From positions 1 through 36,833 of the IMG/VR virus record IMGVR_UViG_3300033067_001808: a stretch of 36,833 nucleotides of DNA; one strand, written 5' to 3'. Numbering within the stretch: position 1 is the first letter of the stretch; the number at the start of each line of letters is the position of its first letter. The stretch is from a virus. Lineage: Duplodnaviria; Caudoviricetes. Positions 57-32,736 of this stretch are shown one piece after another. Position numbers and translations under genes: made by a program. Under the pieces are notes generated by a model. It worked only from the letters and a program-made list of their open reading frames with translations, made no database searches and had not been told where the DNA came from.

Positions 57-569
57 GTGCGCCTGACCGGTATCAGCGCAGTGGCCGACATGGTCGGCGT
101 GCATTACCAGACGGTCTGCGACTGGGTCGATGCTGGGCTTCCTGTCGCTTACCAGGGCACGCAGTTCGACGCCTACCAGTTCGAGTCGAGCGACGTGATC
201 AGGTGGTACGTCGCGCGCAAAGCCTCGGAACTGCCGGAGACGCCGAAGGATCGCCTGCTGCGGCTGCAGGCCGAAGAAGTGGAGATGCGGCTGGCTGAGC
301 GGCGCGGGTTGCTGATCGAGGCCACGAAGCTCGAGCCCGCCCTGCGCGCGGCGATCGTCTCGGCGAGGGAGAACCTGCTGCGCGCCGGCCCGCACCTGGC
401 CGCGCAGATGGAAGGCGCGGACAAGGGCCGCCGCATAGAGCTGCTGCGCGAGGCGCACGAGGAGTTTCTGCGCCTGCTGTCACACTGGCGGCCCGAAGAC
501 CAGGCTGTCGTTGACGACCTTGCCGACGTGGTCGATGGGCAGGATGGCGACGATGAACGCGCCGCGTGA
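57..569 (+). CDS. Terminase small subunit (lambda Nu1-like)
   Basis: N-terminal wHTH (VADMVGVHYQTVCDWVDAGLP), then coiled coil RLLRLQAEEVEMRLAERRGLLI; overlaps the large subunit gene. Confidence 0.85.
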   Translation: MRLTGISAVADMVGVHYQTVCDWVDAGLPVAYQGTQFDAYQFESSDVIRWYVARKASELPETPKDRLLRLQAEEVEMRLAERRGLLIEATKLEPALRAAIVSARENLLRAGPHLAAQMEGADKGRRIELLREAHEEFLRLLSHWRPEDQAVVDDLADVVDGQDGDDERAA

Positions 570-2604: not shown

Positions 2605-2606
2605 GG

Positions 2607-3191
2607 ATGGGGCTGCTGCGCCGCTTCGACCTGGCGCCGCTGATCGAGCGGCACCGGATCAAGGTGTTCGTCGAGACCGGCACCGGCGGGGGCGACTCGC
2701 TGGACTGGGCTGCCGGCTTCGGCTTCGACGCGCTGTACTCCTGCGAGATCGAGCCGATCCTGGCCGTCGGCGCTATTGCCCGCTTCGCCGCCGAGCCGCG
2801 CGCCGTGATCGTGCGCGCCGACTCCGCCGCCTTCCTGCGCATGGTCATGCGCCCGGAACTGCCGCCCGCGCTCGTCTGGCTGGACGCGCACTTCCCCGGC
2901 GCAGACTTCGGCCTGCGGGGCTACCAGGCCGGCGACATCCCCGACGAGATCCGCCTGCCGCTGCGCCAGGAGCTGGAGATCCTCAGCCGCCGCCCGGGCC
3001 GCGACGTGATCCTGATCGACGATCTGCGCCTGATCGAGCCCGGCGACTACGAGGCCGGCCCGCTGCCGGAGGGCTTCCCGCCCGCGCCGGAGGGCGGCGC
3101 CTCGTGGATACGGCAGATGTTCGCCGCCACCCACGAGGCGCGCAGCTCGTTCAAGGATACCGGCTACCTGATGCTGACGCCGCGCGCATGA
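2607..3191 (+). CDS. Class I SAM-dependent methyltransferase-like protein
   Basis: ATG at 2607, 2 nt after the terminase stop; motifs VFVETGTGGG, YSCEIE, ADSAAFL, VWLDAH and VILIDD. Confidence 0.75.
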   Translation: MGLLRRFDLAPLIERHRIKVFVETGTGGGDSLDWAAGFGFDALYSCEIEPILAVGAIARFAAEPRAVIVRADSAAFLRMVMRPELPPALVWLDAHFPGADFGLRGYQAGDIPDEIRLPLRQELEILSRRPGRDVILIDDLRLIEPGDYEAGPLPEGFPPAPEGGASWIRQMFAATHEARSSFKDTGYLMLTPRA

Positions 3192-3430
3192 GGAAGAGGG
3201 CCGTGAGCGAACTGCTGGACTGGCTGCAACAGGCCGTGTTCGAGGCCGAGACTGGGCGGGCGAGCGCGGACGAGATTCGCGCCCGCTTCCTGCACGAGTT
3301 CGGCGGCGTGCGGGTCACGGTGCCGAAGTTCGATCCGAAGCAACGCGCGCAGGAGATCACCCGCATTCGCACGCTGATCGAGCAGGGCACGGCGGAGCGG
3401 ACGGCAAGGATGGTTGTGAGGGGGAGATGA
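3188..3430 (+). CDS. Mor/C-like late transcription activator (small)
   Basis: HEFGGVRVTVPK resembles the FGG-x-x-Y/V-P motif of Mu Mor/C family proteins; ATGA overlap with the upstream gene. Confidence 0.55.
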   Translation: MRKRAVSELLDWLQQAVFEAETGRASADEIRARFLHEFGGVRVTVPKFDPKQRAQEITRIRTLIEQGTAERTARMVVRGR

Positions 3431-3433
3431 ATT

Positions 3434-3661
3434 ATGTCGGCGAGAAAACACAGAAGGTTCGCGCAAATGAATTTGGCACAAGCGAAAGCGTTTTTGTCAC
3501 AAAAAGATGCGGCGCAGTTTGAGCGCTTAGTTGATTCGCTTTGTTCCTCTATTCTGCAGCGCATCACCGATGCGGAATTCGATGAGTTGGACGGAGTGTC
3601 CCTTGATCTAGGTATCGTCGGACCACGGACACCGTTTATGAATCTGAAAATTGCAATTTAA
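3434..3661 (+). CDS. Hypothetical protein, AT-rich insertion (moron-like)
   Basis: 75-aa ORF, GGAG upstream, visibly more AT-rich than its flanks. Confidence 0.55.
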   Translation: MSARKHRRFAQMNLAQAKAFLSQKDAAQFERLVDSLCSSILQRITDAEFDELDGVSLDLGIVGPRTPFMNLKIAI

Positions 3662-3677
3662 TCTTCCGGAACACTTC

Positions 3678-3719
3678 TGCCGATCGCGGCTAGGATCGGC
3701 AAAAAAGGTTCCCCATGAT
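3678..3719 (+). promoter_or_regulatory. Putative activator-dependent late promoter
   Basis: Inverted repeat TGCCGATC-N8-GATCGGCA (3678-3701) followed by a -10-like CATGAT (3714-3719) just upstream of the head operon. Confidence 0.4.
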
Positions 3720-3727
3720 TCGTGCTC

Positions 3728-4267
3728 ATGGCCGAACCCTCCTCCATCCGCGCCGGCGATACCGTCATCTGGACGCGTGAGCTTCCCGACTTCGCCCCAT
3801 CGGCCGGCTGGGCGCTCGCTTACCGGCTGATCCCGGCCAGCGGCGCGGCGGTCGATATCTCGACCACCGGCAGCGGCATCACCTACACCGCCACGCTTTC
3901 CGCCACCGCCTCGGCGGCGATCGCCGCCGGCAACTGCACGCTGGCCGGTCACGTCACCAAGGGAGCCGAGTCACAGACGGTCTATCAGGCGGCGCTGGCC
4001 GTCCTGCCGAACCTGCGCACCGCCGCCGCCTTCGACCCGCGCACGCCGAACGAGATCGAACTGGCCGCAGCGCGCACAGCTTTCAGTCGCGGCGTGTTGA
4101 GCTACTCGGTCGGCGACAGGCAAGTCACCTATGAAGATTCGGGTAAGTTGCTCACCCGCGTGCGCTATCTCGAGCAGCAAGTCTCCACCGAGCGCTATTA
4201 CGCCGCCATCGGCGCCGGCCAGGAAGCCTCGCCTCCGGGCCGGGTGATGTACCGGGGCGTGCAGTGA
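3728..4267 (+). CDS. Head-tail joining / gpW-like protein
   Basis: C-terminal VLSYSVGDRQVTY...LLTRVRYLEQQV resembles gpW; position directly before the portal. Confidence 0.65.
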   Translation: MAEPSSIRAGDTVIWTRELPDFAPSAGWALAYRLIPASGAAVDISTTGSGITYTATLSATASAAIAAGNCTLAGHVTKGAESQTVYQAALAVLPNLRTAAAFDPRTPNEIELAAARTAFSRGVLSYSVGDRQVTYEDSGKLLTRVRYLEQQVSTERYYAAIGAGQEASPPGRVMYRGVQ

Positions 4268-5859
4268 TGGGCTGGTTCGCCAACCTGCGCCGCAGCCGCG
4301 CGCACAAGCAGGCCGCCGCCGAACTGGCGCGCCTGATGGAAATCGCCCAGACGCCCGCCTGGACGGCCGGATGGGGCTCCGAGTCGCTCACGCTCAACGA
4401 GGATGCCGGGGCTTCGCTGCCCATCGCCGTGGCGCGATCCCGCGGCCTGTGGCGCAACAACGACTACGTCCGCCGCTACCGCCAGCTCCTGGTGAGCAAC
4501 GTGCTCGGGCCGATCGGCCTGCGCCTGCAGATGCGCATGAGCCTGCGCGACGGCCGTCCCAACCAGCCGGTCAATGATCGCATCGAGGCCGCCTGGCGCG
4601 CCTTCGGCACCCGGGCCGCCTGCGAAGTCTCCGGCAACCTGGAATGGGCGGACGTCGAGCGCCTGTGCCTGGAATGCCTGGCGCGCGACGGAGAATTCCT
4701 GATCCGCAAGCTGCCGCGCGGGCCGCACGGCTTCCAGCTCCAGGTGATCGATCCGACGCTGCTCGACGTCGGGCTCAATCTCACCGTAGCAGGCGGCCGG
4801 CGCATCGTGATGGGCGTCGAGGTCGACGAGTACGGCGCGCCGATCGCCTACCACATCCGCAACGGCGCGCGCCCGGCTTACCAGACGACGACCGCGTTCG
4901 ATCACGTGCGCGTGCCGGCCGCCGAGATCATCCATCGCTTCGTCGCCGAAGAACCCGGCCAGGTGCGCGGCATCCCCTGGACGGCCACCGCCGCGCAGCG
5001 CCTGTGGCTGGTGCGCGATTTCGAGAAGGCCGCCATGGTGGCGAGCAGCAACGCCGCCAAGCGCATCGGCTTCTTCGTCAGCCCCAACGGCGAGGCGCCG
5101 CCCGGCATGGGCGACACCATAGTCTCCGCCGTGCTCGAGCAGGCCAAGGCCGCCGGGCGGGTGCTCACGGCCGACGAGGTGGCCAAGCTCAAGTCGGTCG
5201 CCGAGAAGTACTCGACCACGGCGCCGGGCACCTACGACACGCTGCCGGACGGCTACGACTTCCGCCCGTTCGAGTCCGACTTCCCCCACGTCGGCCACGG
5301 CGAGTACGTCAAGGCCACCCTGCGCGGGGCCGCCTCGGGCCTCGGCGTGAGCTACGTGAGCCTGGGCAACGATCTGGAAAGCGTGAATTACTCCTCCGCC
5401 CGGGTCGGCATCCTCGAAGAGCGCGAGTTCTACAAGTGGGCGCAGGGCTGGCTTACCGCCGCGCTGCATGCCGAGGTGTTCACCGCCTGGCTGGAAAAGG
5501 CGCTGTTCAAACTCGACGAGCTTCGCGTGCTCGATGCCGCCCGCCTGCCGCAGTACCTCGCCGCCGCCACCTGGCAGCCGCGCCGCTGGGCCGGTATCGA
5601 CCCGGTGAAGGAAGCCGCCGCCGCCGAGAAGAACCTGCAGCTCAAGCTCACCAGCCGCCGCCGGCTGATCCTGGAGCGCGGCGAAGACCCCGACGAGGTA
5701 TTCGACGAGATCGCCGCGGAAGAATCGCAGTTCGGCCCGCTGATGCCGGCCGCCGTCGCGCCACCCGCCGAGCCCGAGGAAGACGCCGCCGAAGACGACG
5801 CCGAGGACAAGACCGAAGACAAGCCCGAGCGCGCCCTGCGCGCCGTATCAGGAGCCTGA
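4264..5859 (+). CDS. Portal protein, lambda family
   Basis: RSRGLWRNNDY, GQVRGIPW, NDLESVNYSSAR and IDPVKE motifs. Confidence 0.95.
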   Translation: MMGWFANLRRSRAHKQAAAELARLMEIAQTPAWTAGWGSESLTLNEDAGASLPIAVARSRGLWRNNDYVRRYRQLLVSNVLGPIGLRLQMRMSLRDGRPNQPVNDRIEAAWRAFGTRAACEVSGNLEWADVERLCLECLARDGEFLIRKLPRGPHGFQLQVIDPTLLDVGLNLTVAGGRRIVMGVEVDEYGAPIAYHIRNGARPAYQTTTAFDHVRVPAAEIIHRFVAEEPGQVRGIPWTATAAQRLWLVRDFEKAAMVASSNAAKRIGFFVSPNGEAPPGMGDTIVSAVLEQAKAAGRVLTADEVAKLKSVAEKYSTTAPGTYDTLPDGYDFRPFESDFPHVGHGEYVKATLRGAASGLGVSYVSLGNDLESVNYSSARVGILEEREFYKWAQGWLTAALHAEVFTAWLEKALFKLDELRVLDAARLPQYLAAATWQPRRWAGIDPVKEAAAAEKNLQLKLTSRRRLILERGEDPDEVFDEIAAEESQFGPLMPAAVAPPAEPEEDAAEDDAEDKTEDKPERALRAVSGA

Positions 5860-5861
5860 GC

Positions 5862-7727
5862 ATGGACCAACGACGCGCCCCGCAACCCGGAGACAACCTG
5901 CTGCGCGGCATCACGCTGGAGCACCGCGCCGCCGAGGGCGACGAGCCGGAGCGCTTTACCGCCTCGCTCAGCTCCGAAGACCCGTACCTGCGCTGGTTCG
6001 GCTACGAGATCCTGGACCACGGCAAGGGCGCCATCGACCTGGCGCGCGCCGCCGAGGGCCTGCCGCTGCTGTTCGGCCACGACGGCTACTCGGCCGACAC
6101 CCTGATCGGCCGGGCGGAGAACGTCCGCGTCGAGGCCAAGCGCCTGAAAGCCGACCTGCGTTTCTTCTCAGACGACGAGTCGCAGCGGGTGGCGCAGAAG
6201 GTGCGCGAAGGCCACCGCGAGATGTCGATCGGCTACCGGGTCGATGAGATGAAGCTGGAAAAAGCCGAATCCGACGGCGCCGACACCTACCGTGTCACCC
6301 GCTGGACGCCGTTGGAGGCGTCCATCGTCAGCGTCCCGGCCGACGCCACCGTCGGCGTCGGGCGCCAGTATTTTCAACCGGCGGCACTGCCCGCCGCCAC
6401 TGCGAAAGGAGTCCATTCCATGGACCAGCAACAAGCCGCCCCGGCGGGCGCAAACGCCGAAGTCCGCGCTATGGCGCCCCAGATGTCCGATGCCGACCGC
6501 GTCAAGGGCATCCTGGACCTGGGCGAAACCTATGCCAAGTACGTCGGCCAGCGCGACATCGCCGACGCCATCCGGCAGGGCCGCAGCGTCGAGCAGTTCA
6601 AGGACCTGATCCTGGCCAAGATGGAGGCCGCGCAGGCCAACGCCAACCCGATGATTATCGGGATGTCGAAAAAGGAAGTGCAGCGCTATTCGTTCTTCCG
6701 GGCCATTCTTGCCGCCGCAGACCGCGACTGGTCAAAAGCCGGGTTCGAGCGCGAGTGCTCCGAAGAAAGCGCTCGCCTGTTCGGCCGCTCTCCGGATGGA
6801 TTTTTCCTACCGATGGATGTCTTGCTTTCGCGCGATTTCAACGTCGGCACCACGACCGAGGCTGGAAACCTGGTGCAGACCACCGTTCGGGCGGACCTCT
6901 GGAACGACGTGATGCGCAATGCGCTGGTCATGCCGAATCTCGGCGCAACAGTTCTGACGGGCCTGCGCGATTCGATTAGCATCCCGCGCAAGGCGACCGC
7001 ATCGACCATCGGCACCCTGACGGAAATCGGCTCGGCGTCCGAGACCGCTCCCACCACCGCCGCACTGAGCCTGACGCCTAAGCGCGTCGGCGCTTTCGTC
7101 GAGGTCTCCAAGCAGGCCATCATCCAGGGCGTGATGGATGTCGAATCTATGATCCGAAACGACCTGCTATTCAGCACCGCGGTGCAGATCGAATACCTGG
7201 CGCTTAACGGCAACGGCACAGCCCCGCAGCATGCCGGCATTCGCAATACCAGCGGCATCGGCACCGTGGTAGGCGGTACAAATGGCGCGGCGCCCGCCTG
7301 GTCGCACATCGTTGACCTCGAAACGGCTGCCGGCAATGCCAATGCCGTACTTACGTCGAGGAACGGCTATCTGGTCAATTCCAAGACGAAGGGCAAGCTA
7401 AAGCAAACGCAGCTCGGAACCAGCCTCGACATGATCTGGAGCCGCTTCACTTCGGAGGCTCCCCTGAACGGCGCCAGAGTCGAGATGACCAACAACCTGC
7501 CGAGCAACCTGACCAAGGGCACCTCGACCACGGTCTGCTCGTCCGCCATTTTCTCAACCGACTGGAGCCAGGAGGTTATCGCCTTCTTCGGTGCGCCGGA
7601 CGTCATCGTCGATCAACTCACCAAAGCCGACACCGGCCAGGTAAAGATCGTACTCAACCAGTTCGCCGACTCCGGCGTGCGGCAGCCCGGCTGCTTCGCC
7701 AAGGTCGACGACCTGATCACCGGCTGA
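5862..7727 (+). CDS. Prohead protease fused to HK97-fold major capsid protein
   Basis: N-terminal PLLFGHD, MSIGY and EASIVSVPAD protease motifs; C-terminal capsid (LTPKRVGAFVEVSKQ, ALNGNGT). The ORF-track extension to 4644 overlaps the portal and is spurious. Confidence 0.92.
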   Translation: MDQRRAPQPGDNLLRGITLEHRAAEGDEPERFTASLSSEDPYLRWFGYEILDHGKGAIDLARAAEGLPLLFGHDGYSADTLIGRAENVRVEAKRLKADLRFFSDDESQRVAQKVREGHREMSIGYRVDEMKLEKAESDGADTYRVTRWTPLEASIVSVPADATVGVGRQYFQPAALPAATAKGVHSMDQQQAAPAGANAEVRAMAPQMSDADRVKGILDLGETYAKYVGQRDIADAIRQGRSVEQFKDLILAKMEAAQANANPMIIGMSKKEVQRYSFFRAILAAADRDWSKAGFERECSEESARLFGRSPDGFFLPMDVLLSRDFNVGTTTEAGNLVQTTVRADLWNDVMRNALVMPNLGATVLTGLRDSISIPRKATASTIGTLTEIGSASETAPTTAALSLTPKRVGAFVEVSKQAIIQGVMDVESMIRNDLLFSTAVQIEYLALNGNGTAPQHAGIRNTSGIGTVVGGTNGAAPAWSHIVDLETAAGNANAVLTSRNGYLVNSKTKGKLKQTQLGTSLDMIWSRFTSEAPLNGARVEMTNNLPSNLTKGTSTTVCSSAIFSTDWSQEVIAFFGAPDVIVDQLTKADTGQVKIVLNQFADSGVRQPGCFAKVDDLITG

Positions 7728-7749: not shown

Positions 7750-7809
7750 TTCGCATGGCTAGGGACGCGACCCGAAAAGCGGACTGCCTCCGCCCGCCTG
7801 CCATGCGAA
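7750..7809 (+). ncRNA. c4 antisense-RNA-like structured element
   Basis: 10-bp closing stem TTCGCATGGC/GCCATGCGAA enclosing TA-GGG(acgcga)CCC-GAAAA-GCGG(actgcctccgc)CCGC-CT; matches the GGCUAGGG..CCCGAAAAGC..CCUGCC pattern of P1-type c4 RNAs as I recall it. Confidence 0.7.
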
Positions 7810-7843
7810 TCATCATTCGGGGGCAGCACGCGGAGGCGCGCTG

Positions 7844-9385
7844 ATGGTCTGGAGAATCGACGATCCACAGGGCAACGAGGCGGCGAAGTGCCGCTTCGAC
7901 GTCCTGCCCTACCTGCATTCCGGCCTGGACCTGGGCTGCGGTCCGGACAAGGTCTGGCCGCACCTGATCGGCATCGACTCGCAGAAAGATTCCAACCTGT
8001 TCGGCATCAAGATGAAGCCGGACATGGTTCTGCCCGATGTGGCGCGCCTGCGCATGTTCGCCGACGGATCCATGCAGTGCGTGTTCAGCTCGCACACCCT
8101 GGAGCACATCCCGGACCACCTGGCGGCGCTCAAGGAATGGTGGCGAGTGATCGAGCCGGGCGGCTACCTGGTGCTCTACCTGCCGCACGCCGATCTGTAC
8201 CCGCGCATCGGCCAGCCCGGCGCGAACCCCGATCACGTGCATGACTTCGTACCGGGCGACATCATCGCCGCGATGGAAGTCACTGCCCCGGATTGGTCGC
8301 TTGTCGTCAATGAGGAGCGCGACGCCGGCCGCGAATACTCCTTCCTGCAGGTCTATCGCAAGCAATCCGCCGGACACGGCCAGCGCCATCCCTGGACCGT
8401 GCCGCTGCCGGAGCATCGCGCCGCCATCGTGCGCGTCGGCGGCCACGGCGATGCCTTGTGGGCAAGTTCTCCGGCCTGGCACCTCAAGCAGGCCGGCTAC
8501 CACGTCACCGTCTATACCGCGCACACCGGCGCGGCCATGCTCTCGCACGATCCCCACATCGACCGGGTCGTCTCGCTGCCCAACAACGCCATGACCGAAG
8601 AGGACATGCGCGCCTACTGGTGCCACGAGGCGGTCAAGTACGAGCGCTTTCACAACCTCATCGGCAGCGTCGAAAAGACCCTGCTGTTTCACGACTCCGA
8701 CGACGGCTACTGGCACCATCCGAAGCTGCGCCACCAGCTCGCCAATCGCAACTACCTGGACCAGGTGCATCTGTACTGCGACGTGCCCGCCGCGCCGAAA
8801 ATGCAGCGCTTTTATCCGTCGCCGGTCGAAGAGGAATGGGCGCGGCTCATGCGCGAAAAGCTCGCCGGCCCGCTGGTTGTGATCGCCCCGGCCGGCAGCG
8901 GCGTGGTCAAGTACTGGCCCCACGCCCAGCGACTCATGGAGCTGCTTGCCGAGCGTGGCGTCTATTCCGTGGTGATCGGCGACGTGCGCGACCCCGGCGT
9001 GACCGGCGTCGAGCCCTGGGGCAGCGTTGTCGGCATGGAATGGCCCGTGCGCTACGCCTGCGCCTTCGCCCTGCGCGCTGACGCCGTGGTGGCCACCGAA
9101 AGCCTGATCGCCAACGCGGTCGCCTTCGAGCCGATGCTCAAGCTGATCACCTTGAGCCACAGCAGCAACGAGAACCTGACCCGCGACTGGACCAACTGCG
9201 CCGCGATCGAGCCGCAGGGCGTGGCCTGCCACCCCTGCCACCGCATCCACGGCAATTTCCAGTTCTGCGCCCAGGACCCGGCCACCGGCGCGGCCGCCTG
9301 CCAGTCCACCGTCACCGCCGACACCGTCGCCGCCTTCCTGTTTGAGCGCTTGGGGCTTGAAGCCCGCGAGGCCGCCCATGCTTGA
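7844..9385 (+). CDS. Methyltransferase (type 11-like) fused to GT-B glycosyltransferase (GT9/heptosyltransferase-like)
   Basis: N-term GLDLGCG, VFSSHTLEH, EWWRVIEPGGYLVLYLP; C-term VRVGGHGDALW, HDPHIDRV, KYWPH, ADAVVATES and CHPCH...C...C. Confidence 0.8.
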   Translation: MVWRIDDPQGNEAAKCRFDVLPYLHSGLDLGCGPDKVWPHLIGIDSQKDSNLFGIKMKPDMVLPDVARLRMFADGSMQCVFSSHTLEHIPDHLAALKEWWRVIEPGGYLVLYLPHADLYPRIGQPGANPDHVHDFVPGDIIAAMEVTAPDWSLVVNEERDAGREYSFLQVYRKQSAGHGQRHPWTVPLPEHRAAIVRVGGHGDALWASSPAWHLKQAGYHVTVYTAHTGAAMLSHDPHIDRVVSLPNNAMTEEDMRAYWCHEAVKYERFHNLIGSVEKTLLFHDSDDGYWHHPKLRHQLANRNYLDQVHLYCDVPAAPKMQRFYPSPVEEEWARLMREKLAGPLVVIAPAGSGVVKYWPHAQRLMELLAERGVYSVVIGDVRDPGVTGVEPWGSVVGMEWPVRYACAFALRADAVVATESLIANAVAFEPMLKLITLSHSSNENLTRDWTNCAAIEPQGVACHPCHRIHGNFQFCAQDPATGAAACQSTVTADTVAAFLFERLGLEAREAAHA

Positions 9386-23931: not shown

Positions 23932-24909
23932 TCAACCGCCAGGCTTGCGGCGCGGTCCGCTCACCCGGTCGATCTCGCGCCGGCGGATGTAGCGCTCGGT
24001 CATCGCCGCCGAGGCGTGGCCGGCCAGCAACTGCGGGTTGAGCCCCTGGGCCTTGGCGTCGGTCAGACTCTTGGCGCGCAGGTCGTGTAGGCGCGCGTCC
24101 TGGATGCCGGCCGCGCGCACTGCCTCGCGGAAGTGCCGGGCTACGGTCTTGTAGGTGAGCGGCGCGCCGGTGTGGGCGTGCAGCAGCGTCAGGCCCTTGA
24201 CGCACCGGTGCAGCGCGCGCGCCTGCTCGACCGCGCCGGCCAGTTCCGGCGTCCAGGTGACGATCAGCCGCTTGCCGGTCTTGGCCTGGCGGAAGGCGAT
24301 GCCTTCCTCGCCGATGTCGGCGTAGCGGATCGCCAGCACGTCGCCGATGCGCTGGGCGGTCAGATAGCACAGATCCATGATCACCCGCGTCTGCGCGCCG
24401 GCCTGGGCGGCGATGGCGGCGTATTCCGAATCGGTGAGGTAGCGCCCGCGCTTGGCCTCGGCGTAGCGCTCGATGCCGAGCACCGGGTTGCTCTCCGCCA
24501 GGCCGCGGCGCAGGGCCAGGGCGAAGACGTCCTTGAGCAGCGCGCGCATCTGGTTGGCCAGGTTCGGCGTGTCGGCGTGGTGGTCCATCAACTGCGCCAC
24601 GTGCTTCGGTTTCACCTGCTCGGGCGAAAACTCCGCGAAGGCGCTTTTCAGGCGCTTGGCGACCATCTTGTACTGCGCCAGGGTGCTGGGCTTGACCCGG
24701 GCCGCTAGGCGCGCCAGGGTGGCCTCGATCAGCCCCGGCATGCCCGCTTCGGGCTCGGCGGGCCGGGTGCGCCGCGCGTACTCGGCCAGGGCCTCGGCGT
24801 AGTCGGTGCCCAGCGAGGTCCAGCGGCCGCGCTTGACCAACCAGTAGCGGCCGTGCCGCAGGTACATGCAGGCCGGCAGGTGGCGGTCGTGTTTGCGGGG
24901 ACGGTTCAT
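23932..24909 (-). CDS. int: Tyrosine integrase
   Basis: Catalytic residues R (TAQRIGD), K (QAKTG), HDLR, LAGH and TERY; start MNRPRKHDRHLP overlaps the upstream xis-like gene. Confidence 0.95.
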   Translation of the reverse strand: MNRPRKHDRHLPACMYLRHGRYWLVKRGRWTSLGTDYAEALAEYARRTRPAEPEAGMPGLIEATLARLAARVKPSTLAQYKMVAKRLKSAFAEFSPEQVKPKHVAQLMDHHADTPNLANQMRALLKDVFALALRRGLAESNPVLGIERYAEAKRGRYLTDSEYAAIAAQAGAQTRVIMDLCYLTAQRIGDVLAIRYADIGEEGIAFRQAKTGKRLIVTWTPELAGAVEQARALHRCVKGLTLLHAHTGAPLTYKTVARHFREAVRAAGIQDARLHDLRAKSLTDAKAQGLNPQLLAGHASAAMTERYIRRREIDRVSGPRRKPGG

Positions 24910-25106
24910 GCCAGGCGCAGGCGCGGTTCCGGCGGGGCAGTCTGCCGCCCTTCGCCCAGGCGCGCAAGCGCCACCGAGCGCAGCACCGCCGGGGTGCCGT
25001 CGGGCCGCGCGGCGTAGGGGATGCGCATGGCTTCCAGCGCCCGGCACTGGGCGCGCGGGGTGACGCGGTGGGTCAGCTCGGCGATTTCGTCGCGGGTGAG
25101 GAACAT
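24906..25106 (-). CDS. DUF4224-like putative excisionase
   Basis: MFLTRDEIAELT...AQCRALEAMRIPY..RPDGTPAV; directly upstream of the integrase. Confidence 0.8.
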   Translation of the reverse strand: MFLTRDEIAELTHRVTPRAQCRALEAMRIPYAARPDGTPAVLRSVALARLGEGRQTAPPEPRLRLA

Positions 25107-25109
25107 GGG

Positions 25110-25325
25110 TCAGGTGGCCGGCTCGGGCGGGGCGGGCAGAGGCGCCCAGTGAGTCGGCGGCCAGTTCCGGCGCATGTAGCCGCCAGCGATCCAGCACCGG
25201 CAGCGCGGGTCATCATCCCAGCAACCGACCAGGATCTTGCATAACGAGTGCTGTTCGCTACCCATGTACAGCAGCATGTACGTGCCGTCCTTCGGCGCGC
25301 TTTCAATCGGCTGCCAGTCGGTCAT
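25110..25325 (-). CDS. DUF551-like protein
   Basis: WQPIESAPKDGT...PTHWAPLPAPP. Confidence 0.8.
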   Translation of the reverse strand: MTDWQPIESAPKDGTYMLLYMGSEQHSLCKILVGCWDDDPRCRCWIAGGYMRRNWPPTHWAPLPAPPEPAT

Positions 25326-25906
25326 CACTGCGCGGCCTCGGCGCCGTAGAGCACCCGGTCCACCTGCTCGATCAGCTCGGGCACGGTGCCGACGTTGTTG
25401 ATCACCACATCGCCGTCTTCGACCGGCAGCCCCCGCTCCGAGACGTGAGCCGCCTCGCTCCCGTAGGCCGCCAGCGGCTGGGGGCGCCTGATGTGCCACA
25501 GCACGCCGCCCTGCGCGCGCAGCCAGGCCGCCTCGTTGGCGAAGCGGATGTCGCTCACCACCACCTGCGACGTGCCGCCTTCCGGGTCCTGCGACGTCAG
25601 CGCGCGATGTACGGCGATCTCGTTGGCCGCCACGCGCAGCCAGATGTCCTCGCCGCACACCGCCCGGCCCCACTCGGTGCCCAGCGTCTGCATCAGCCGG
25701 CGCGGGCTCGCCCCGATCCACGGGATCACCGCTTCCTTGCGTGCGCGGTCGAGCAGCTCGTCCTCCGTCAGCCCGAATAGGATCATCAGCGCCGCGCGCA
25801 GCGGCTCGGCCAGCGCCACCTCATAGAAGCCGTGGGCGCGCACCAGGTGCGTGGCCACCGTGCTCTTGCCCGCGCCGGCGCGCCCCGTCAGCCCGATCAG
25901 CCTCAT
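25325..25906 (-). CDS. Deoxynucleoside monophosphate kinase
   Basis: LIGLTGRAGAGKST, SPRRLMQTLGTEWGR, VVSDIRFANE and HVSE; GGAGG RBS. Confidence 0.9.
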   Translation of the reverse strand: MRLIGLTGRAGAGKSTVATHLVRAHGFYEVALAEPLRAALMILFGLTEDELLDRARKEAVIPWIGASPRRLMQTLGTEWGRAVCGEDIWLRVAANEIAVHRALTSQDPEGGTSQVVVSDIRFANEAAWLRAQGGVLWHIRRPQPLAAYGSEAAHVSERGLPVEDGDVVINNVGTVPELIEQVDRVLYGAEAAQ

Positions 25907-25984
25907 GCCTGCCTCCCGAAAGCGATCTCGAACAGCCAATACTTATCCAGTTTGCGTAAGTCGATCAGTTCGCGTTAAGCTCCA

Positions 25985-26079
25985 TGCCAATCAGCGCATC
26001 CAGCGCGATCGGAGCGCACTTCGCATTGTTCGTTTTGTTGGCGTTCAGTCGCGGGCGCTCGCTCACTTTTGCGTTAGGC
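25985..26079 (+). mobile_element. attC-like site 1 (degenerate)
   Basis: R'' TGCCAAT, 5 nt, CATCCAGC ... GCTCACT, TTTGC, R' GTTAGGC; internal imperfect palindrome. Confidence 0.6.
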
Positions 26080-26553
26080 GCTACGTGCCCGCTCGCGGGC
26101 TTCGGCATTCGCCATGTCTGTGGCAATGTGACGGTCCACTGCGCTCGGGTCGTTGAACCTGGCCTGCGTCTGGTCGCTGCACAGGTAGTACACACACCGC
26201 TCAGGGCTGCTGTGGTCACGCAGCCATCGGTAGTTTCGCGCGTGCGTCGCGGCCACCCGCAAGTCTTGCGCTTCCTCGCCACGGCCTTCCATCGCAAGGT
26301 CGTGCGCCAGCTTCATCAGCCGCACATACCAGCGGTTCTCGTCGTTCCATGTGCTCACTTCCAGCCTCCTATCCCGCGCAGCATGTTCCACAACATCCAA
26401 CTCAGCACGCCAAGCGCCATCACCATCGGCACCGCCGCTATCGCCAGTAACCAGTGCAGCAGGTTCCATTCGCAGTCCATACGTCACCTCATCACTTTGC
26501 ACGTGGGAGGCGTGCGCCCATGTCTCTAGCCTTGCTCGTGCCGTGAATCGCAT
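26074..26553 (-). CDS. Hypothetical protein (159 aa), cassette gene
   Basis: GGAGGT RBS, start MRFTARARLE; the stop TAA is the TTA of the GTTAGGC core site. Confidence 0.7.
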   Translation of the reverse strand: MRFTARARLETWAHASHVQSDEVTYGLRMEPAALVTGDSGGADGDGAWRAELDVVEHAARDRRLEVSTWNDENRWYVRLMKLAHDLAMEGRGEEAQDLRVAATHARNYRWLRDHSSPERCVYYLCSDQTQARFNDPSAVDRHIATDMANAEARERARSA

Positions 26554-26616
26554 CTCAACCTCCGCGCCTAATCCGGCAGTCCAGCGGACGCCATGCCGGC
26601 GCCGCTGACTTCTGCG
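26074..26616. mobile_element. Integron-type gene cassette
   Basis: Begins TTAGGCGC (26074-26081), the exact reverse complement of GCGCCTAA (26564-26571) in its own attC; carries a single ORF. Confidence 0.75.
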
Positions 26617-26622
26617 TTCGGC
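26566..26622 (+). mobile_element. attC-like site 2 (57 bp)
   Basis: GCCTAAT-CCGGC-AGTC(C)AGCGG(A)CGCC-ATGCC-GGCGCCGCTGACT-TCTGC-GTTCGGC: perfect stem with two unpaired bases, which are G and T on the bottom strand. Confidence 0.85.
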
Positions 26623-26849
26623 GTCTCTCGCAATGGCGACCCGCAAAGCCCCTCGCGCTGCAAGTAGCCCATCGCCCTCGTCGGCAGTTCGTGCTCTGGT
26701 GCGGCTTTCCGCAGAGCCCGGGCGAGTTTCGCAACGAGCATCGCCAGATCGCCGACGTTTCGCTGTAGGTCTTCGGCCTCTTCTTTGCACAGCCAGCCGT
26801 CAGGCAATTCCGGCGGGTCTTCCGGGTCTCCCCATGCTTCCCAACTCAT
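26568..26849 (-). CDS. Hypothetical protein reading through attC site 2
   Basis: MSWEAWGDPE...DLAMLVAKLARALRK...LCGSPLRETPNAEVSG; start could be 26861. Confidence 0.6.
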   Translation of the reverse strand: MSWEAWGDPEDPPELPDGWLCKEEAEDLQRNVGDLAMLVAKLARALRKAAPEHELPTRAMGYLQREGLCGSPLRETPNAEVSGAGMASAGLPD

Positions 26850-26865
26850 CGCGCGTTCCATGTAC

Positions 26866-27141
26866 TCATGCCGCCTCCGATCCCCGCAACGCCAGCAGCG
26901 CCGCCTGCACGCAGCGCGCCGGGTGCTCGCAGTCGTCCAGCGCGTGGTGCTTGGTGCCGGCGCGCTTGAGCGTGGCGCCTGGGGCCAGCTTGCACACGGT
27001 GCGCGCGCAGCGCTCGTTCCAGTAGTGCCACGGGGCATTGCCCAGGTCGGCGGCTTCGAAGGCCTCGCGCAGGATCGCGTCCTCGCGCGTGGTCCAGTAG
27101 CTGCGCGCCGGGCGATCGAGGAGCGGCGTGGGGGCGTTCAC
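26866..27141 (-). pseudogene. Chimeric/truncated 3'-5' exonuclease (Rv2179c-like C-terminal half)
   Basis: AILREAF...PWHYWNERCART...HHALDD matches the C-terminus of phage DEDDh exonucleases; the N-terminal DxE motif is absent. Confidence 0.55.
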
Positions 27142-27671
27142 GGCCGCCAGACTCCCTGCGTGGCCTGCAGAAAATCGCCCAGTGCCAGCGTCTGCTCGGC
27201 GCTCAGTTCCAGCGCGCCTTCGCACGTGGCGATCACCAGCGTGCCGCGATGGTCCAGGCTGATGTCGATCGCCTCGCCCGGCGGCAGCGTGCGCGCCATC
27301 GCCTCACTCAAGTCGAACGCTGCGCCGGAGGGGTGGCCCTCCGGTGCGTGCTTCGCAGCGGCGCGCGCCCCGGCGGAGGACTGTGCAGCGTCGAGTTCCG
27401 GTCGCGCGCGGCCGGTGTTGTTGGCCGCCACCTCCGGCTGGGCGGGCGCTATTTCAGCGCGGGGAACATCGGTCAGGCCGGGGGCGTCCGCGCACACGTA
27501 GCGGTACGGCCGCGCCTCGCCGCGCAGCACCTTGCCCGCGCGGTACAAGCCGTGAATCAGCCGCGCGGCATGATCGCCGTCCTGGATGTCGTCGATCGCC
27601 TTGGCGATTTCGGCGGCGGTGCTCTCCGGGTTCTCGCGCAGGAAGGCGAGGATGCGCTGCGACAGGCTCAC
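27138..27671 (-). CDS. Winged-helix DNA-binding protein
   Basis: LSQRILAFLRENPESTAAEIAKAI...LYRAGKVLR...YRY. Confidence 0.65.
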   Translation of the reverse strand: MSLSQRILAFLRENPESTAAEIAKAIDDIQDGDHAARLIHGLYRAGKVLRGEARPYRYVCADAPGLTDVPRAEIAPAQPEVAANNTGRARPELDAAQSSAGARAAAKHAPEGHPSGAAFDLSEAMARTLPPGEAIDISLDHRGTLVIATCEGALELSAEQTLALGDFLQATQGVWRP

Positions 27672-27826
27672 GCCCGGCCCTCCTCGATCATCCGGCGCAC
27701 GATCTCGCGGTCCTCCGCGTCCGAGCATCGGCCGGACTGGAGCACCTCCGCCAGCAGCACCACCCCGGCCAGCCCGCCGGCCAGGAAGGCCACTAGCACG
27801 ATCAGGATCAACGCGGTCTCGCTCAC
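27668..27826 (-). CDS. Small membrane protein
   Basis: ALILIVLVAFLAGGLAGVVLLA; GTGA overlaps on both sides. Confidence 0.55.
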   Translation of the reverse strand: MSETALILIVLVAFLAGGLAGVVLLAEVLQSGRCSDAEDREIVRRMIEEGRA

Positions 27827-28062
27827 AGCCAGCGCTCCCACGGCAGGGCCGAGAGCGTCGCCACGGCCAGCACTGCCGCATCGGCCTTGCGCTGCACCTG
27901 GCGGGCCGGGTGCGCCAGCCATTTCTCGCCGAGCAGCCGCACGGCGGCGAGCCAGCGGCGCATCAGCGCCTTGCGCTGGGCTTCGTCCGCCAGCGCATGC
28001 CGCGGCCAGATCCGCACCGCGCGCCGGTTCAGCGCGTAGCGGGTGAGCGATACGTTTGTCAT
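27823..28062 (-). CDS. Hypothetical protein
   Basis: 79 aa, coupled by 4-nt overlaps. Confidence 0.6.
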   Translation of the reverse strand: MTNVSLTRYALNRRAVRIWPRHALADEAQRKALMRRWLAAVRLLGEKWLAHPARQVQRKADAAVLAVATLSALPWERWL

Positions 28063-28271
28063 GATGCCCCCACGTCGAGCCGGATCGGCACGATTGCCTC
28101 CGGCGGTCTCTGATTCCAGGCGGTGATGGCCTCGTACTGGTCCTGCCCGGTGTGATGCGGCCCGACCGTGCGGCAGCCGTTGCAGCAGATCGCCCAGGTC
28201 CGCGTGTCGATCTCCTCGATGGCGAGATCGGCGCCGCAGCAGTACGGGCAGCGCAGCACGGGCGTCTTCAT
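28059..28271 (-). CDS. Lar-family restriction alleviation protein
   Basis: LRCPYC...ICCNGCRTVGP...EAITAWNQR. Confidence 0.75.
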   Translation of the reverse strand: MKTPVLRCPYCCGADLAIEEIDTRTWAICCNGCRTVGPHHTGQDQYEAITAWNQRPPEAIVPIRLDVGAS

Positions 28272-28453
28272 GCCTCGCCCCGCGTGCCCAGGCATTCCAG
28301 GCACACCCGGCGGCGCGCCTTGCCCTGGCCGATCCAGCGGTACGGGTGGCGCAGGCTCAGGCTGCGACCGCAGCGCCGGCACAGCCAGGTGTCGGTGATC
28401 GTGCGCCGCGGCGGGCCCGAGGGCGGGCGGCGCATGTCCTGCAGGCGGATCAC
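28268..28453 (-). CDS. Small zinc-finger protein
   Basis: CRRC...CLEC. Confidence 0.55.
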   Translation of the reverse strand: MIRLQDMRRPPSGPPRRTITDTWLCRRCGRSLSLRHPYRWIGQGKARRRVCLECLGTRGEA

Positions 28454-28683
28454 GCCGCGAATCCCAGGGTGCGCAGCGCAGGCCGCTCGGTCCAGGCGCG
28501 CATCGACCAACCGTCTCGATCGTCGCCGCTGACCGGCTGATTGCGCAGGCAGGCGCAGTGCGGGCTTTGCCGCCAGCGCTCGCTGCTCGTCTCCCAGTAG
28601 CCGGCGAGATGCGTCGTCCAGCGCTCGGAGTCCTGCTCCACCGCCGTGCGCACGGCCGCGCGGATGCCGAGATCGGCGCTCAT
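28450..28683 (-). CDS. Hypothetical protein
   Basis: 77 aa, ATGA and GTGA coupled. Confidence 0.5.
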   Translation of the reverse strand: MSADLGIRAAVRTAVEQDSERWTTHLAGYWETSSERWRQSPHCACLRNQPVSGDDRDGWSMRAWTERPALRTLGFAA

Positions 28684-28985
28684 GCCGCGCACGCCTTCGG
28701 CGCCGCCGGCCAGGCCCTCGGCGGGCGCACCTTGCCGGGCGGGTAATCTGCGGCGCGCAGGGCCAGCGCCTGCTCGGCGCGGCGCACGCGGCTCGCCAGC
28801 CGCATGAACACCGCGCTGTTGGCCCGCGCCGAGCGGCCCGCCAGCTCATCGTCGCCGGCCAGCCGCTCGGCTTCCAGCGCGGTGGTGGTGGCCTCGTTCA
28901 ACGCGCACAGCAGCCCCACGAGCTCGCCGCGGCTGAGCTTCAATTCGGTGGTGGTGGTGCTGCGGGTGGTGTCGGTCGTGTCCAT
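28680..28985 (-). CDS. Hypothetical protein, first gene after PL
   Basis: GGGAGG RBS; 101 aa. Confidence 0.65.
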   Translation of the reverse strand: MDTTDTTRSTTTTELKLSRGELVGLLCALNEATTTALEAERLAGDDELAGRSARANSAVFMRLASRVRRAEQALALRAADYPPGKVRPPRAWPAAPKACAA

Positions 28986-29027
28986 TGCATCCTCCCTGTT
29001 GAGACTGTTACGGCAAAGGATGACTAA

Positions 29028-29069
29028 ACATTACCGCATCCGGTAAAAAAAAGCAACCGGATACGGTAA
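29028..29069 (-). promoter_or_regulatory. PL promoter with two operators
   Basis: Minus strand TTGCTT-17-TAATGT; operators TTACCGCATCCGGTAA (29031-29046) and CAACCGGATACGGTAA (29054-29069). Confidence 0.8.
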
Positions 29070-29155
29070 TATCGTGGCGTGCCGCGTTTGATGCGGCGCA
29101 ACGGAGGCGGCGCCGCGAGGTGCTACCGTCTGAAAATCACTAGATGGAGGTCGAA

Positions 29156-29365
29156 ATGTTGCAGGCGATCGGGCTGCTGATGTGCGCGTACCTATGCTTC
29201 AAAGGCATCGAAATTTGGATGATCGGAACCACTGCACCCAAAGAGCTGGGGCGCGGCGCCGCCTGGGCGGGGGCGCTGGTGTTCGTGGCGGCCGTATTTG
29301 TGGCCGTGGTGTTCGCCTGGCTGTTCATCGCTATGGGCGCGAGCAGCGGCATCCCCGGCCTCTGA
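29156..29365 (+). CDS. Small two-TM membrane protein in the immunity region
   Basis: GGAGGT RBS before ATG 29156; two hydrophobic helices; convergent with cI. Confidence 0.7.
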   Translation: MLQAIGLLMCAYLCFKGIEIWMIGTTAPKELGRGAAWAGALVFVAAVFVAVVFAWLFIAMGASSGIPGL

Positions 29366-29369
29366 GCGG

Positions 29370-29693
29370 CTACGGGTCGTACTTGGCGATTTCCTGTGCC
29401 GCGTGCGCCAGGCGCTTGTAGAGGTCGCGCTCTGCGGGCGTGAGCGATAGCGGCGGGTTGTTCGGGTCGAGGTCTGGCATGAGGAGGTGCCAGGCTTCGA
29501 GCCCATAGGCTTCGGCGATCTGCTGCACCTTGTCGATGCCGACCGAGGTGCGGCGATTCTTGATGCGCGTCACCGTGCCATTGCCGACGCCCGAATCTTC
29601 GATGAATCGCTTCTGGTTGATCTTGCCGTAGCGAGCGCGCATCAACGCCTGCACGTTCTCCCAAACTATCTCTTTCACGTCGCGCCGGACCAT
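29370..29693 (-). CDS. cI: CI-like repressor (HTH-XRE, no peptidase domain)
   Basis: INQKRFIEDSGVGNGTVTRIKN...IDKVQQIAEAYGLEAWHLL; divergent from a cro-like gene. Confidence 0.8.
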   Translation of the reverse strand: MVRRDVKEIVWENVQALMRARYGKINQKRFIEDSGVGNGTVTRIKNRRTSVGIDKVQQIAEAYGLEAWHLLMPDLDPNNPPLSLTPAERDLYKRLAHAAQEIAKYDP

Positions 29694-29758
29694 CGAAAGA
29701 CGGTAGCGCGAATCGCTTACCGGGTGCGGTTGCAAAAACTTACCGGATGCGGTAATGT
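29691..29758 (+). promoter_or_regulatory. OR operators with PR and putative PRM
   Basis: TTACCGGGTGCGGTTG (29717-29732), TTACCGGATGCGGTAA (29740-29755), half site CGGTAG (29701-29706); PR is TTGCAA-17-TAATGT (29730-29758). Confidence 0.8.
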
Positions 29759-29766
29759 CTGCGTCC

Positions 29767-29985
29767 ATGACTCTGCTCGAATCCATCGAAAGGCTTCGCC
29801 GGTGCTCGCGCTCTGATATTCGCGTGATCTCTGAAAAGACCGGCCTGCCTTTCCACACGCTATGCAAGATCGCTACGGGCGAGACGAAAGACCCGCGTGT
29901 ATCGACGATTCAGGCCCTGACCGAATACTACGAGGCGGCGGACGTCACTATCCACGCCGCCCACGACGAACAGGAGGCCGCGTGA
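29767..29985 (+). CDS. cro: Cro-like HTH protein
   Basis: ISEKTGLPFHTLCKIATGETKDPRVSTIQAL. Confidence 0.8.
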   Translation: MTLLESIERLRRCSRSDIRVISEKTGLPFHTLCKIATGETKDPRVSTIQALTEYYEAADVTIHAAHDEQEAA

Positions 29986-31101: not shown

Positions 31102-31330
31102 CGATTACGCAAGCTATCGCGCTTACCTCGCGCATCCGGTATTCCGGGCCTGCGTAGCGGCCAGGCGAGCGTTGGTTGGCGAGGCGTGCGAAGAGTGCGG
31201 CGAGGCGCCGGCTAGCGAGCCACATCACATCGACTACCCTGCCTGGGGCGCCTTCGACACGCCGGCGAATATCCGGCTGCTGTGCCACGCCTGCCACAGC
31301 AAACACCACGTGCAAAGGCTGCTCGATTGA
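31070..31330 (+). CDS. HNH endonuclease-like protein
   Basis: CEECG...PHHIDY...NIRLLCHACHSKHH. Confidence 0.8.
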   Translation: MLRVKHILASSDYASYRAYLAHPVFRACVAARRALVGEACEECGEAPASEPHHIDYPAWGAFDTPANIRLLCHACHSKHHVQRLLD

Positions 31331-32736
31331 ACGCCGCCCACGACCTGCTGTCGCTGGATTCGCTGGCGCTCGATCCGGCGCTGCAGCCGCGCCAGGCGCT
31401 TGACCAGAACACCGTCGCCGAGTACGCGGCGGCGATGCAGGCCGGCGACGTTTTCCCGCCGCTGCATGTGTTCGATACCGGCGAGAACCTGTTACTGGCC
31501 GACGGGTTTCATCGCGTCGCTGCGGCCCGCCAGGTCGGCTACGGCGCGCTGCGCGCCACCGTGCGCACCGGCACCTGGGATGACGCCTTCGCCTACACGC
31601 TGTCGGCCAACCGCACGCACGGCCTGCGCCGCACCCGCGCCGACCTGCAGGCCACCATCGAGCGCGCCCTGCGCAACCCGGTATGGGTGGAGCGTGCCGA
31701 CTCGTGGATCGCCGCGGAGATCGGGTGCCATGACCAAACGGTGCGCGTAAGTCGGGAGCGAATGGAATCAACTTCTCAAATTGAGAAGTTGGACTCCCTT
31801 CTCGGCAAGGATGGCAAGCACCGGCCGCGGGAGAATAAGCGCGCGACCGAAGCGTTCGTCGTCGCAGACTCCTACGGCCTGGAGTCCTGGGCAGCGCTGG
31901 ACGCCAAGCAGCGCGGCATCGTGTTCAAGGCCAAGCCCGAGGGCCAGATGAACCGCCAGGAGTCCGATAACGAGGATTCCGTCGGCAACATCGAATGGGC
32001 CAAGTGGTCGTGGAACCCGGTCACCGGCTGCAAGCACGACTGCCCGTACTGCTATGCGCGAGACATCGCGGAGCGCTTCTACCCACAGAAGTTCGCGCCG
32101 ACCCTGCACCCGAAGCGGCTACGCCAGCCCGTCATCGCGCATCCGCCGGCCGCCGCAGAGCAAGACTTGAGTCTGCGCAACATTTTCACTTGCAGCATGG
32201 CCGACCTGTTCGGCCGCTGGGTGCCACGCGAATGGATCGATGCCGTGTTACAGACGGTGGCCGATGCGCCGCAGTGGAATTTCCTGTTCCTGACCAAGTT
32301 CCCGCGGCGCATGTCGGAGTTCGATTTCCCAGATAACGCCTGGGTCGGCACCTCGGTCGATTGTCAGGCCCGGGTACGCAATGCCGAGGCTGCTTTCGCC
32401 AAGGTCCGCGCCAAAGTCAAATGGCTTTCGTGCGAACCGCTGATCGAGCCGCTGCGCTTCGAGCACATGGATTTGTTTCAGTGGCTTGTTATCGGTGGCG
32501 CATCGCGCAGCACGCAGACGCCGGAATGGCGGCCGCCGCGTGCGTGGGTGGATGCGCTGGAGGACCAGGCTGCTGCGGCTGGAACGATGATCTACGAGAA
32601 AACCAACCTGCTGCGGCGCTGGCGCTCCTGGCCCGGACATCCGGACGAACCGAAAACCATAGCGCCCGAGGCGATGCACTACCTGGGCAAGCGTCAGACG
32701 GTGGACCAGGTGATCGAGGAGCCGGCCGGATCGTGA
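31327..32736 (+). CDS. ParB-like N-terminal domain fused to DUF5131 (Gp37Gp68, radical-SAM-like) domain
   Basis: LLADGFHRVAA...ANRTHGL; WSWNPVTGCKHDCPYCYA, IFTCSMADLF, FLFLTKFP, WLSCEPL and WLVIGG; TTG start overlapping the HNH stop. Confidence 0.85.
   Translation: MNAAHDLLSLDSLALDPALQPRQALDQNTVAEYAAAMQAGDVFPPLHVFDTGENLLLADGFHRVAAARQVGYGALRATVRTGTWDDAFAYTLSANRTHGLRRTRADLQATIERALRNPVWVERADSWIAAEIGCHDQTVRVSRERMESTSQIEKLDSLLGKDGKHRPRENKRATEAFVVADSYGLESWAALDAKQRGIVFKAKPEGQMNRQESDNEDSVGNIEWAKWSWNPVTGCKHDCPYCYARDIAERFYPQKFAPTLHPKRLRQPVIAHPPAAAEQDLSLRNIFTCSMADLFGRWVPREWIDAVLQTVADAPQWNFLFLTKFPRRMSEFDFPDNAWVGTSVDCQARVRNAEAAFAKVRAKVKWLSCEPLIEPLRFEHMDLFQWLVIGGASRSTQTPEWRPPRAWVDALEDQAAAAGTMIYEKTNLLRRWRSWPGHPDEPKTIAPEAMHYLGKRQTVDQVIEEPAGS

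Follow-up and report, generated by a model that had tools for sequence, protein, structure and literature searches.

Clusters of attC sites without an intI gene have already been published for phages, and IntI1 recombined five of six phage attC sites in the experiments described in PMC9892861. TJE1 and PH101 are presented there as typical arrays, and the words 'antisense' and 'opposite' are absent from the main text. By the attC model of the present analysis, TJE1 is canonical. In MW202573, one of the CALINs of that paper (L396:4146-5815), all annotated genes lie on the attC bottom strand, a feature that passes unremarked in its text. According to PMC5027507, the choice of attC strand is held to make the cassette genes face the integron promoter.

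The locus described here lies in a linear viral record of 36.8 kb, about 62% complete; the whole stretch analysed (36,833 nucleotides) is called the window below. Like the phage clusters of PMC9892861, it has attC between small genes, no intI, and several ORFs between two sites, but only one of its sites passes the attC model. It also resembles the sedentary chromosomal integrons of the Rhodocyclaceae (L353-L390) in its attC architecture, crossover and circular-junction signature, and the attC type of its better site (site 2, below) occurs in one of them, L359. The difference lies in the genes. In the Rhodocyclaceae integrons the cassette genes are on the top strand (57 of 73 sites, with 5 on the bottom strand and 11 unclear) and end at R'', whereas the genes of the window cassette start after R'' on the bottom strand and end at, or run through, the next site, with no intI, and no recognisable attI or Pc, beside them.

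Three further systems are worth comparing. SALINs and attC x attG recombination, as presented by Loot et al. (bioRxiv 10.1101/2022.09.11.507474), likewise involve a single scorable attC with no integrase nearby; there they are stray insertions in bacterial genomes, whereas the cassette family of the window is phage-specific, reversed, and found in multi-site arrays. The inverted-integrase integrons of Cury et al. (2016, PMC4889954) are likewise a variant of integron orientation, but as described in that paper it is intI that is flipped relative to attC. In the phage layout the cassette genes are flipped relative to their own attC, and the intI of the two phage loci that have one (L391 and L392) keeps its usual polarity to attC. 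Lastly, Nivina et al. (2020, PMC7439510) report that synthetic attC sites engineered into proteins are translated and still recombine, whereas here natural genes read into attC and gain variable tails.

The locus therefore acts like an integron cassette array but fails the gene-orientation feature. A CALIN contains two or more attC and no intI nearby; there is no intI near the window array, and its one attC by the model, plus a remnant, is too few. A literature search for reversed cassettes in phages found no paper, though it was partial and a published mention may have been missed. The locus is a real, partly decayed member of a phage-specific system of reversed cassettes. We consider it probable that the early genes of such phages include a reversed integron-type cassette that is mobile among relatives, and that the phages swap early genes by means of an IntI encoded elsewhere.

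The phage and its early genes

PHROG matches mark the record as a temperate phage, with head and tail genes, an integrase, an excisionase, a repressor and cro-like pair, and a primase, to which a Pfam search of the window added a terminase. The repressor and cro-like pair lies at 29370-29985 (PHROG matches), and every called gene from the repressor to the excisionase gene xis is on the minus strand. Within this row the cassette sits between a 3'-5' exonuclease-like gene upstream (26866..27141, minus strand; phrog_255, PF16473) and a deoxynucleoside monophosphate kinase gene downstream (25325..25906, minus strand; phrog_139, E 8.7e-56). The row ends with xis (24906-25106, minus strand) and the phage tyrosine integrase, which is not an IntI (23932-24909, minus strand), both identified with PHROG and Pfam.

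The gene order suggests an early-left promoter, PL, upstream of the row. The earlier note described the cassette as co-directional with a PL operon, and the direction stands: its genes share the orientation of the repressor-distal early genes, which lead on to xis and int. PL itself, however, is a presumption from gene order, and a consensus scan of 25800-29800 gave 0 sigma-70-like promoters. Two similar inverted repeats, at 29031-29046 and 29740-29755, lie on either side of the repressor gene region and are possible operators. Further right, an early gene on the plus strand (31327-32736) encodes a ParB-like domain fused to DUF5131. The sole match of an Rfam scan of the window was an int-alpA RNA motif (7752-7822, plus strand, 50.5 bits), with the major head gene on one side and a methyltransferase-domain gene (7844-9385) on the other, and ARAGORN found 0 tRNA genes.

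Among the sequencing runs examined, run X1 carries the cassette region identical to the window at every letter, and X1 may be the sample of origin. RNA runs contained only small shares of the region.

The attC sites

Site 2 (26566..26622) lies on the minus strand, which is its bottom, recombining strand, with the G|TT crossover at 26616/26617. The earlier note proposed this 57-bp sequence as an attC from its spacing and its extrahelical G and T. Both hallmarks are present: there are R''/L''/L'/R' inverted repeats with attC spacing (spacers of 5-6 bases), and the minus (bottom) strand carries the extrahelical G and T. A rule-based detector gave site 2 as its sole match in the window, with a score of 20 against a best score of 18 in 10 shuffled windows. 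A covariance model scored it at 36.6 bits (E about 7.5e-7, minus strand), the next match in the window having 12.3 bits. The model was built from 62 bacterial sites in intI-anchored arrays, excluding the site-2 type; its source was 40 regions beside intI genes, in genomes of the family of G052, a record titled Rhodocyclaceae. In these regions the detector found 82 sites, from which the 62 were taken; 81 had the polarity expected from the intI geometry, and the polarity of the model agrees with the bottom strand of TJE1_attC1, a site recombined by IntI1 in PMC9892861. By the model, site 2 is an attC. Plain folding z-scores are modest, at -2.2 to -2.5.

The stem is not perfect, as had been claimed. 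R'' reads AAT instead of AAC, which creates a C:A mismatch in the cleavage triplet. The letter is confirmed by run X1, while other contigs in the examined runs have C at this place (26572). The AAC/GTT triplet of the R box, unpaired here, is paired in a second copy of the cassette, L395, described below. Because a non-complementary triplet, different from that of site 2, lowered recombination from 2.2e-3 to 6e-6, about 370-fold, according to PMC2811028, site 2 is presumably impaired by its mismatch.

The site-2 type of attC is widespread. A search with the pattern of its inner arms matched 100 viral loci and, by estimate, 950 stretches of bacterial genomes. Most of 101 viral matches keep the AAC and GTT cores, which lie outside the search pattern. 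In bacteria the type also occurs in the intI array of L359, where it adjoins top-strand genes that we take to resemble a hicAB pair. Many other contigs of runs X1, X2 and X4 carry it too, with loose ends at the site borders. In X1 and X2 its summed depth is about 1000 to 5900; the phage contig of X1 has a depth of 15.

The second, degenerate site of the earlier note, site 1 (25985..26079, minus strand), keeps its crossover GTT at 26073 and its right arm, while its left arm is unpaired. Its status as an attC is not confirmed: it scores 2.9 bits (E 1.1 on a 351-base stretch) with the covariance model, so that the model support sought for both sites was obtained for site 2 alone, and its folding z is -0.6. 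L340 has an intact attC whose right arm is identical to the final 20 bases of site 1, so the crossover at 26073 is real and site 1 is a remnant. The frame in which orf93 (below) runs into an attC stays open across all of site 1, as far as 25965 (25965-26108, minus strand), so that an empty site would still yield a translatable tail. A possible third remnant at 25933..25980 ends in a GTT core (25974-25980). As an attC this core fails the test, and by visual inspection it lacks a motif present in attI candidates of bacteria and phages; neither reading is supported.

Genes of the cassette

From crossover to crossover the cassette occupies 26074..26616 (minus strand) and comprises its genes and its own attC body; the G|TT points at 26073 and 26616 enclose 543 bp, as first noted. 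The segment was thought to hold exactly one gene, and a long frame is indeed open, over 159 codons in the window, L304 and L337 and over 162 codons in L320 and L322. The substitutions tell otherwise. Mostly synonymous change in the long frame is confined to its first 24 and last 94 codons, and in the middle it is seen only in the +1 frame. Between the window and L304, the middle stretch has 9 synonymous and 4 replacement changes in the +1 frame against 3 and 13 in the long frame; between the window and L337, the counts are 6 and 7 against 3 and 15. These patterns rule out a single gene of 159 codons and indicate that the cassette holds at least two genes, here called orf41 and orf94.

The predicted order is as follows. 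After a ribosome-binding motif there is a 24-codon leader (26482..26553, minus strand) under purifying selection, whose frame is open into orf94, giving the 159 codons in all. Then comes orf41 (26355..26480, minus strand, +1 frame), recognised by its substitution pattern and predicted to encode a small hydrophobic peptide of membrane type; its stop overlaps the start of orf94. The last gene, orf94 (26074..26358, minus strand), encodes a conserved phage protein with 62 homologues, and its TAA stop ends at the crossover. In the relatives L309, L310, L315, L318 and L331, extra genes lie between orf41 and orf94.

Pfam and PHROG gave no family for orf94, orf41 or the 159-codon frame. In the Atlas, the orf94 cluster is 80% viral, and only unnamed clusters were returned. 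A single-sequence search with orf94 gave 0 viral loci, and an alignment search gave 2 viral and 33 metagenome loci. Of 301 genomes of the Rhodocyclaceae family one has orf94, again within a reversed array.

The gene on the other side of site 2 is orf93 (26568..26849, minus strand; phrog_660), whose last codons read through site 2 to a stop in R''. Among 34 homologues, 21 match it up to the crossover codon and then diverge, with 20 different tails. Because the homologues break at the crossover codon with such varied tails, orf93 is the end of another cassette, one whose own attC is gone. A 20-base scar just before orf93 (26850..26869, minus strand) duplicates the five opening codons of orf94, and run X3 contains a relative that is without it (20 bases missing at 26844). 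No attC was found beside orf93 in loci L302 and L303. In the latter, the orf93 homologue begins with the cassette's own leader, comprising the R''-side motif and a ribosome-binding site (L303:2830-2860), with no attC before it. On the opposite side of the cassette, neighbourhoods of the kinase gene are not enriched in attC, with 5 detector matches in 80 loci against 3 in shuffles.

Orientation of the genes

The coding strand of the cassette is the bottom strand of its attC, and the TAA of orf94 ends at the crossover; the gene is thus antisense to the attC, as had been observed in the first reading of the sequence. Among viral loci this is the common arrangement. With one pattern and one gene caller, 59 of 61 scorable viral loci (out of 100) are reversed and none is canonical, while among 39 scorable bacterial loci (out of 121) 31 are canonical and one is reversed, the rest in each set being ties. 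A locus was scored if it had a detector match of score 18 and flanks that were long enough. The gene caller was made for this analysis; it gave the correct strand for all 12 known window genes, although these had formed part of its training data.

A test that does without the caller gives the same picture. Of 131 viral sites, 96 have a ribosome-binding motif and a start codon on the bottom strand no more than 45 bases after R''; in two bacterial sets the figures are 5 of 73 and 3 of 92. In the loci found from the orf94 side, all 37 detector matches go with the gene strand, while in intI-anchored bacterial arrays 57 of 73 sites are canonical and 5 reversed, with 11 unclear. Reversed genes are a feature of the phages: viral loci normally have this layout and bacterial loci have it only exceptionally, and in this sense the supposed pool of reverse-oriented phage cassettes exists. 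Most phage sites keep the extrahelical G and T.

Some of the long attC sites carry a ribosome-binding motif and an ATG in the loop, so that the gene starts inside the hairpin (L304, L305, L306, L311, L314, L318 and L321). Such starts were counted at 8 of 31 sites in the orf94 loci, 7 of 131 in the pattern loci and 3 of 73 in the bacterial intI arrays.

Evidence for mobility

The start of the 543-bp segment pairs with its own R'' side at 6 of 6 variable positions, and the present R' partner does so at 4 of 6. This is the signature of a cassette that has passed through a circle, and it bears out the earlier note on this point. The 8-mer at the segment start precedes only 3 of 143 viral sites.

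The same cassette was sought in other contexts and was found in L395, part of genome G301, where it lies between different neighbours; 460 of 544 aligned positions (85%) are identical. The L395 copy has the same attC as site 2, intact, within an array of 8 model matches. By inspection its contig is phage-like. The reversed array there spans 210-4065, and one of its genes presumably encodes a DNA methyltransferase, which it resembles. In run X4, one contig follows the window over 26204-26618, with 9 differences and 2 gaps, and another over 26073-26191 with 0 differences; both depart from the window at a crossover GTT. Among 29 loci in which the 3' end of orf94 is intact, 26 have an AAC directly after the last codon; what comes next falls into 20 different sequences, and in 18 loci a model match begins there.

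The circular-junction signature is general among the phage arrays. Of 71 adjacent pairs of viral sites, 54 have the far end of the cassette as the better pairing partner of R'' and 6 have the present partner, and pairing with R'' is perfect for the far end in 29 and for the present partner in 0; among the 37 pairs from bacterial arrays the far end was better in 22 and worse in 7. A linkage test over 195 sites found the attC body associated with the R'' flank in 48 of 114 pairs, and with the R' flank in 4 of 53. The pair counts in both the linkage and the circular-junction tests are not independent, and the 100 pattern loci were selected on the attC body. Both tests are in line with cutting at G|TT in R', which is where IntI acts. 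By the sequence evidence as a whole, the 543-bp segment is a mobile cassette. As relatives carry it between other neighbours, the phages likely swap early genes with an integron enzyme.

The exact empty junction, which the earlier note expected in related phages, was not found by any of the searches made for it. A pattern for the right arm of site 1 gave one viral match with another follower, and a pattern for the end of orf93 gave 0; the peptide predicted from site 1 ends none of the 34 orf93 homologues; and no joint skips the cassette in the four runs examined, whose contigs show presence only. Elsewhere, the cassette had 0 matches in PLSDB plasmids and one match, of 34 bases, among GenBank phages.

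Not everything fits a simple exchange of cassettes. One cassette leader occurs with 10 attC bodies in 13 contexts. L320 and L322 have 3 differing codons over 489 bases and yet differ in attC and in the ribosome-binding region, which suggests homologous recombination inside the leader, or repeated building of cassettes. Plain shuffling by IntI does not explain this exchange of attC bodies within the cassette family. In the phage of the window, the array is likely no longer efficient, since site 2 is mismatched at the cleavage triplet; site 1 is a remnant.

Source of the recombinase

The window has no IntI, in agreement with the earlier note. The best match reaches 16.1 bits where the cut-off is 265, and the integrase of the phage is no IntI either; with a record about 62% complete, the missing part could hold an intI. 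Between the array and xis there are other genes and no intI. Among 50 viral records tested (48 with the site-2 attC type, plus L337 and L303), IntI is present in 2, and among the 14 that are at least 90% complete it is present in 1. Relatives of the locus reach 8 attC per array.

Two phage loci do have an intI. In L391 (762-7814, G042) the repressor is followed, all in one direction, by early genes, three attC in the reversed layout, an attI-like site and then intI, xis and int. L392 (6449-10344, G040) is a provirus; its array of six reversed attC ends at an intI, which lies on the edge of the record. As for bacteria, 151 genomes were sampled from the family of G052 (Rhodocyclaceae), and 77 of them have an IntI; from G301 and L359, this family would be our guess for the host of this phage. 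G301 itself, which holds the intact array, has only a partial intI match of 98.9 bits. In a tree of 22 IntI rows that passed a motif filter the two phage IntIs are not grouped, deep support being weak, and no IntI donor could be identified from it.

The layout of L391 would account for the reversal: its intI lies at the distal end of the early operon, an order in which only genes on the bottom strand would be read. It is possible, if rather doubtful, that the array of the window is a relic of such a phage integron, in which the intI and attI of an ancestor, once between the array and xis-int, were lost, so that only co-infecting phages with an intI now serve the array. The complete row of L391, and the six attC with an intI at the record end in L392, are what this reading would lead one to expect. 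Against it, IntI is rare in the viral records tested, as given above, and no attI-like motif is found at the place in the window that matches L391. The two phage IntIs stand apart in the weakly supported tree, and as L392 is a provirus its intI could be that of the host.

Proposed mechanism

The reading that we prefer is exchange by an IntI encoded elsewhere, and it would work as follows. As in known integron biology, the bottom strand of attC would fold into a hairpin, and IntI would cut between A and C of the AAC in R'. The cassette would leave as a circle with its own attC and could re-enter at another attC, at an attI or at a secondary GTT site. With the genes on the bottom strand, each attC would precede its genes and provide the ribosome-binding site, either after R'' or in the hairpin loop. 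The TAA of the next crossover would often be the stop codon, and a gene without a stop at the crossover would take its last residues from whichever attC comes next. The cassette genes would be read from the phage early-left promoter and not from an integron Pc. The most likely source of the enzyme would be an integron in the host chromosome, perhaps during the SOS response, the stress that also triggers prophage induction; alternatively, it could come from a phage in the same cell that carries an intI. Ordinary homologous recombination between related cassettes likely adds mosaicism inside them. In the genome studied here the cassette is probably close to fixed, both of its sites being damaged.

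Could recombination do this without IntI? The hairpins might be former attC sites that now act as linker repeats, with modules swapped by homologous or microhomology recombination. The many attC bodies found on one cassette leader, the extra genes inside the cassette in L309, L310, L315, L318 and L331, the 20-base scar beside orf93 and the damage to both sites here all fit such a process. Adjacent attC bodies are, however, too dissimilar for homology, and yet the breakpoints fall on G|TT; the circular-junction signature and the linkage of attC body with R'' need a cut at R'; and most phage sites retain the extrahelical G and T. We regard this explanation as unlikely.

A single accident, in which a bacterial cassette was inserted once and backwards at a secondary GTT site, as in SALINs, is very improbable. 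IntI does insert at GWT sites across genomes without strand bias, according to bioRxiv 10.1101/2022.09.11.507474, and one attC alone passes the model in the window. A backwards insertion, though, would flip gene and attC jointly and not against each other; the reversed layout recurs in dozens of viral loci; and the one genome out of 301 in the Rhodocyclaceae family that has orf94 also holds it in a reversed array. Recurrence and geometry thus largely refute this reading. That the palindrome is a terminator, some other RNA hairpin or a product of chance is barely credible, since the modest folding z-score and the gene that reads through it are outweighed by the covariance score and polarity of site 2, by the AAC and GTT cores kept outside the search pattern in most of the 101 matches, and by the lack of any terminator-like call at site 2.

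Significance

The locus itself is a damaged example, and its value lies in relatives that carry the same cassette in several contexts, together with an intact copy. A large pool of phage cassettes whose genes are flipped relative to their sites means that the same chemistry serves a second logic of expression. It links phage accessory genes to host integrons and provides natural cases of translated attC. The mosaicism of phage early regions is usually ascribed to illegitimate recombination, and the cassettes offer a testable, site-specific cause for such gene-by-gene variation.

In a broader form, which we hold to be slightly on the favourable side of even, temperate phages of Betaproteobacteria run a mirror image of the integron. 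Their shared pool of opposite-strand cassettes would be silent in bacterial integrons, expressed from the phage early promoter, and shuffled by a host or phage IntI at prophage induction, with the attC supplying ribosome-binding sites, start codons and interchangeable protein ends. If this is true, the system would drive the mosaicism of phage genomes in a site-specific way, and, as one cassette occurs with many attC bodies, it would also give a view of how new cassettes are made.
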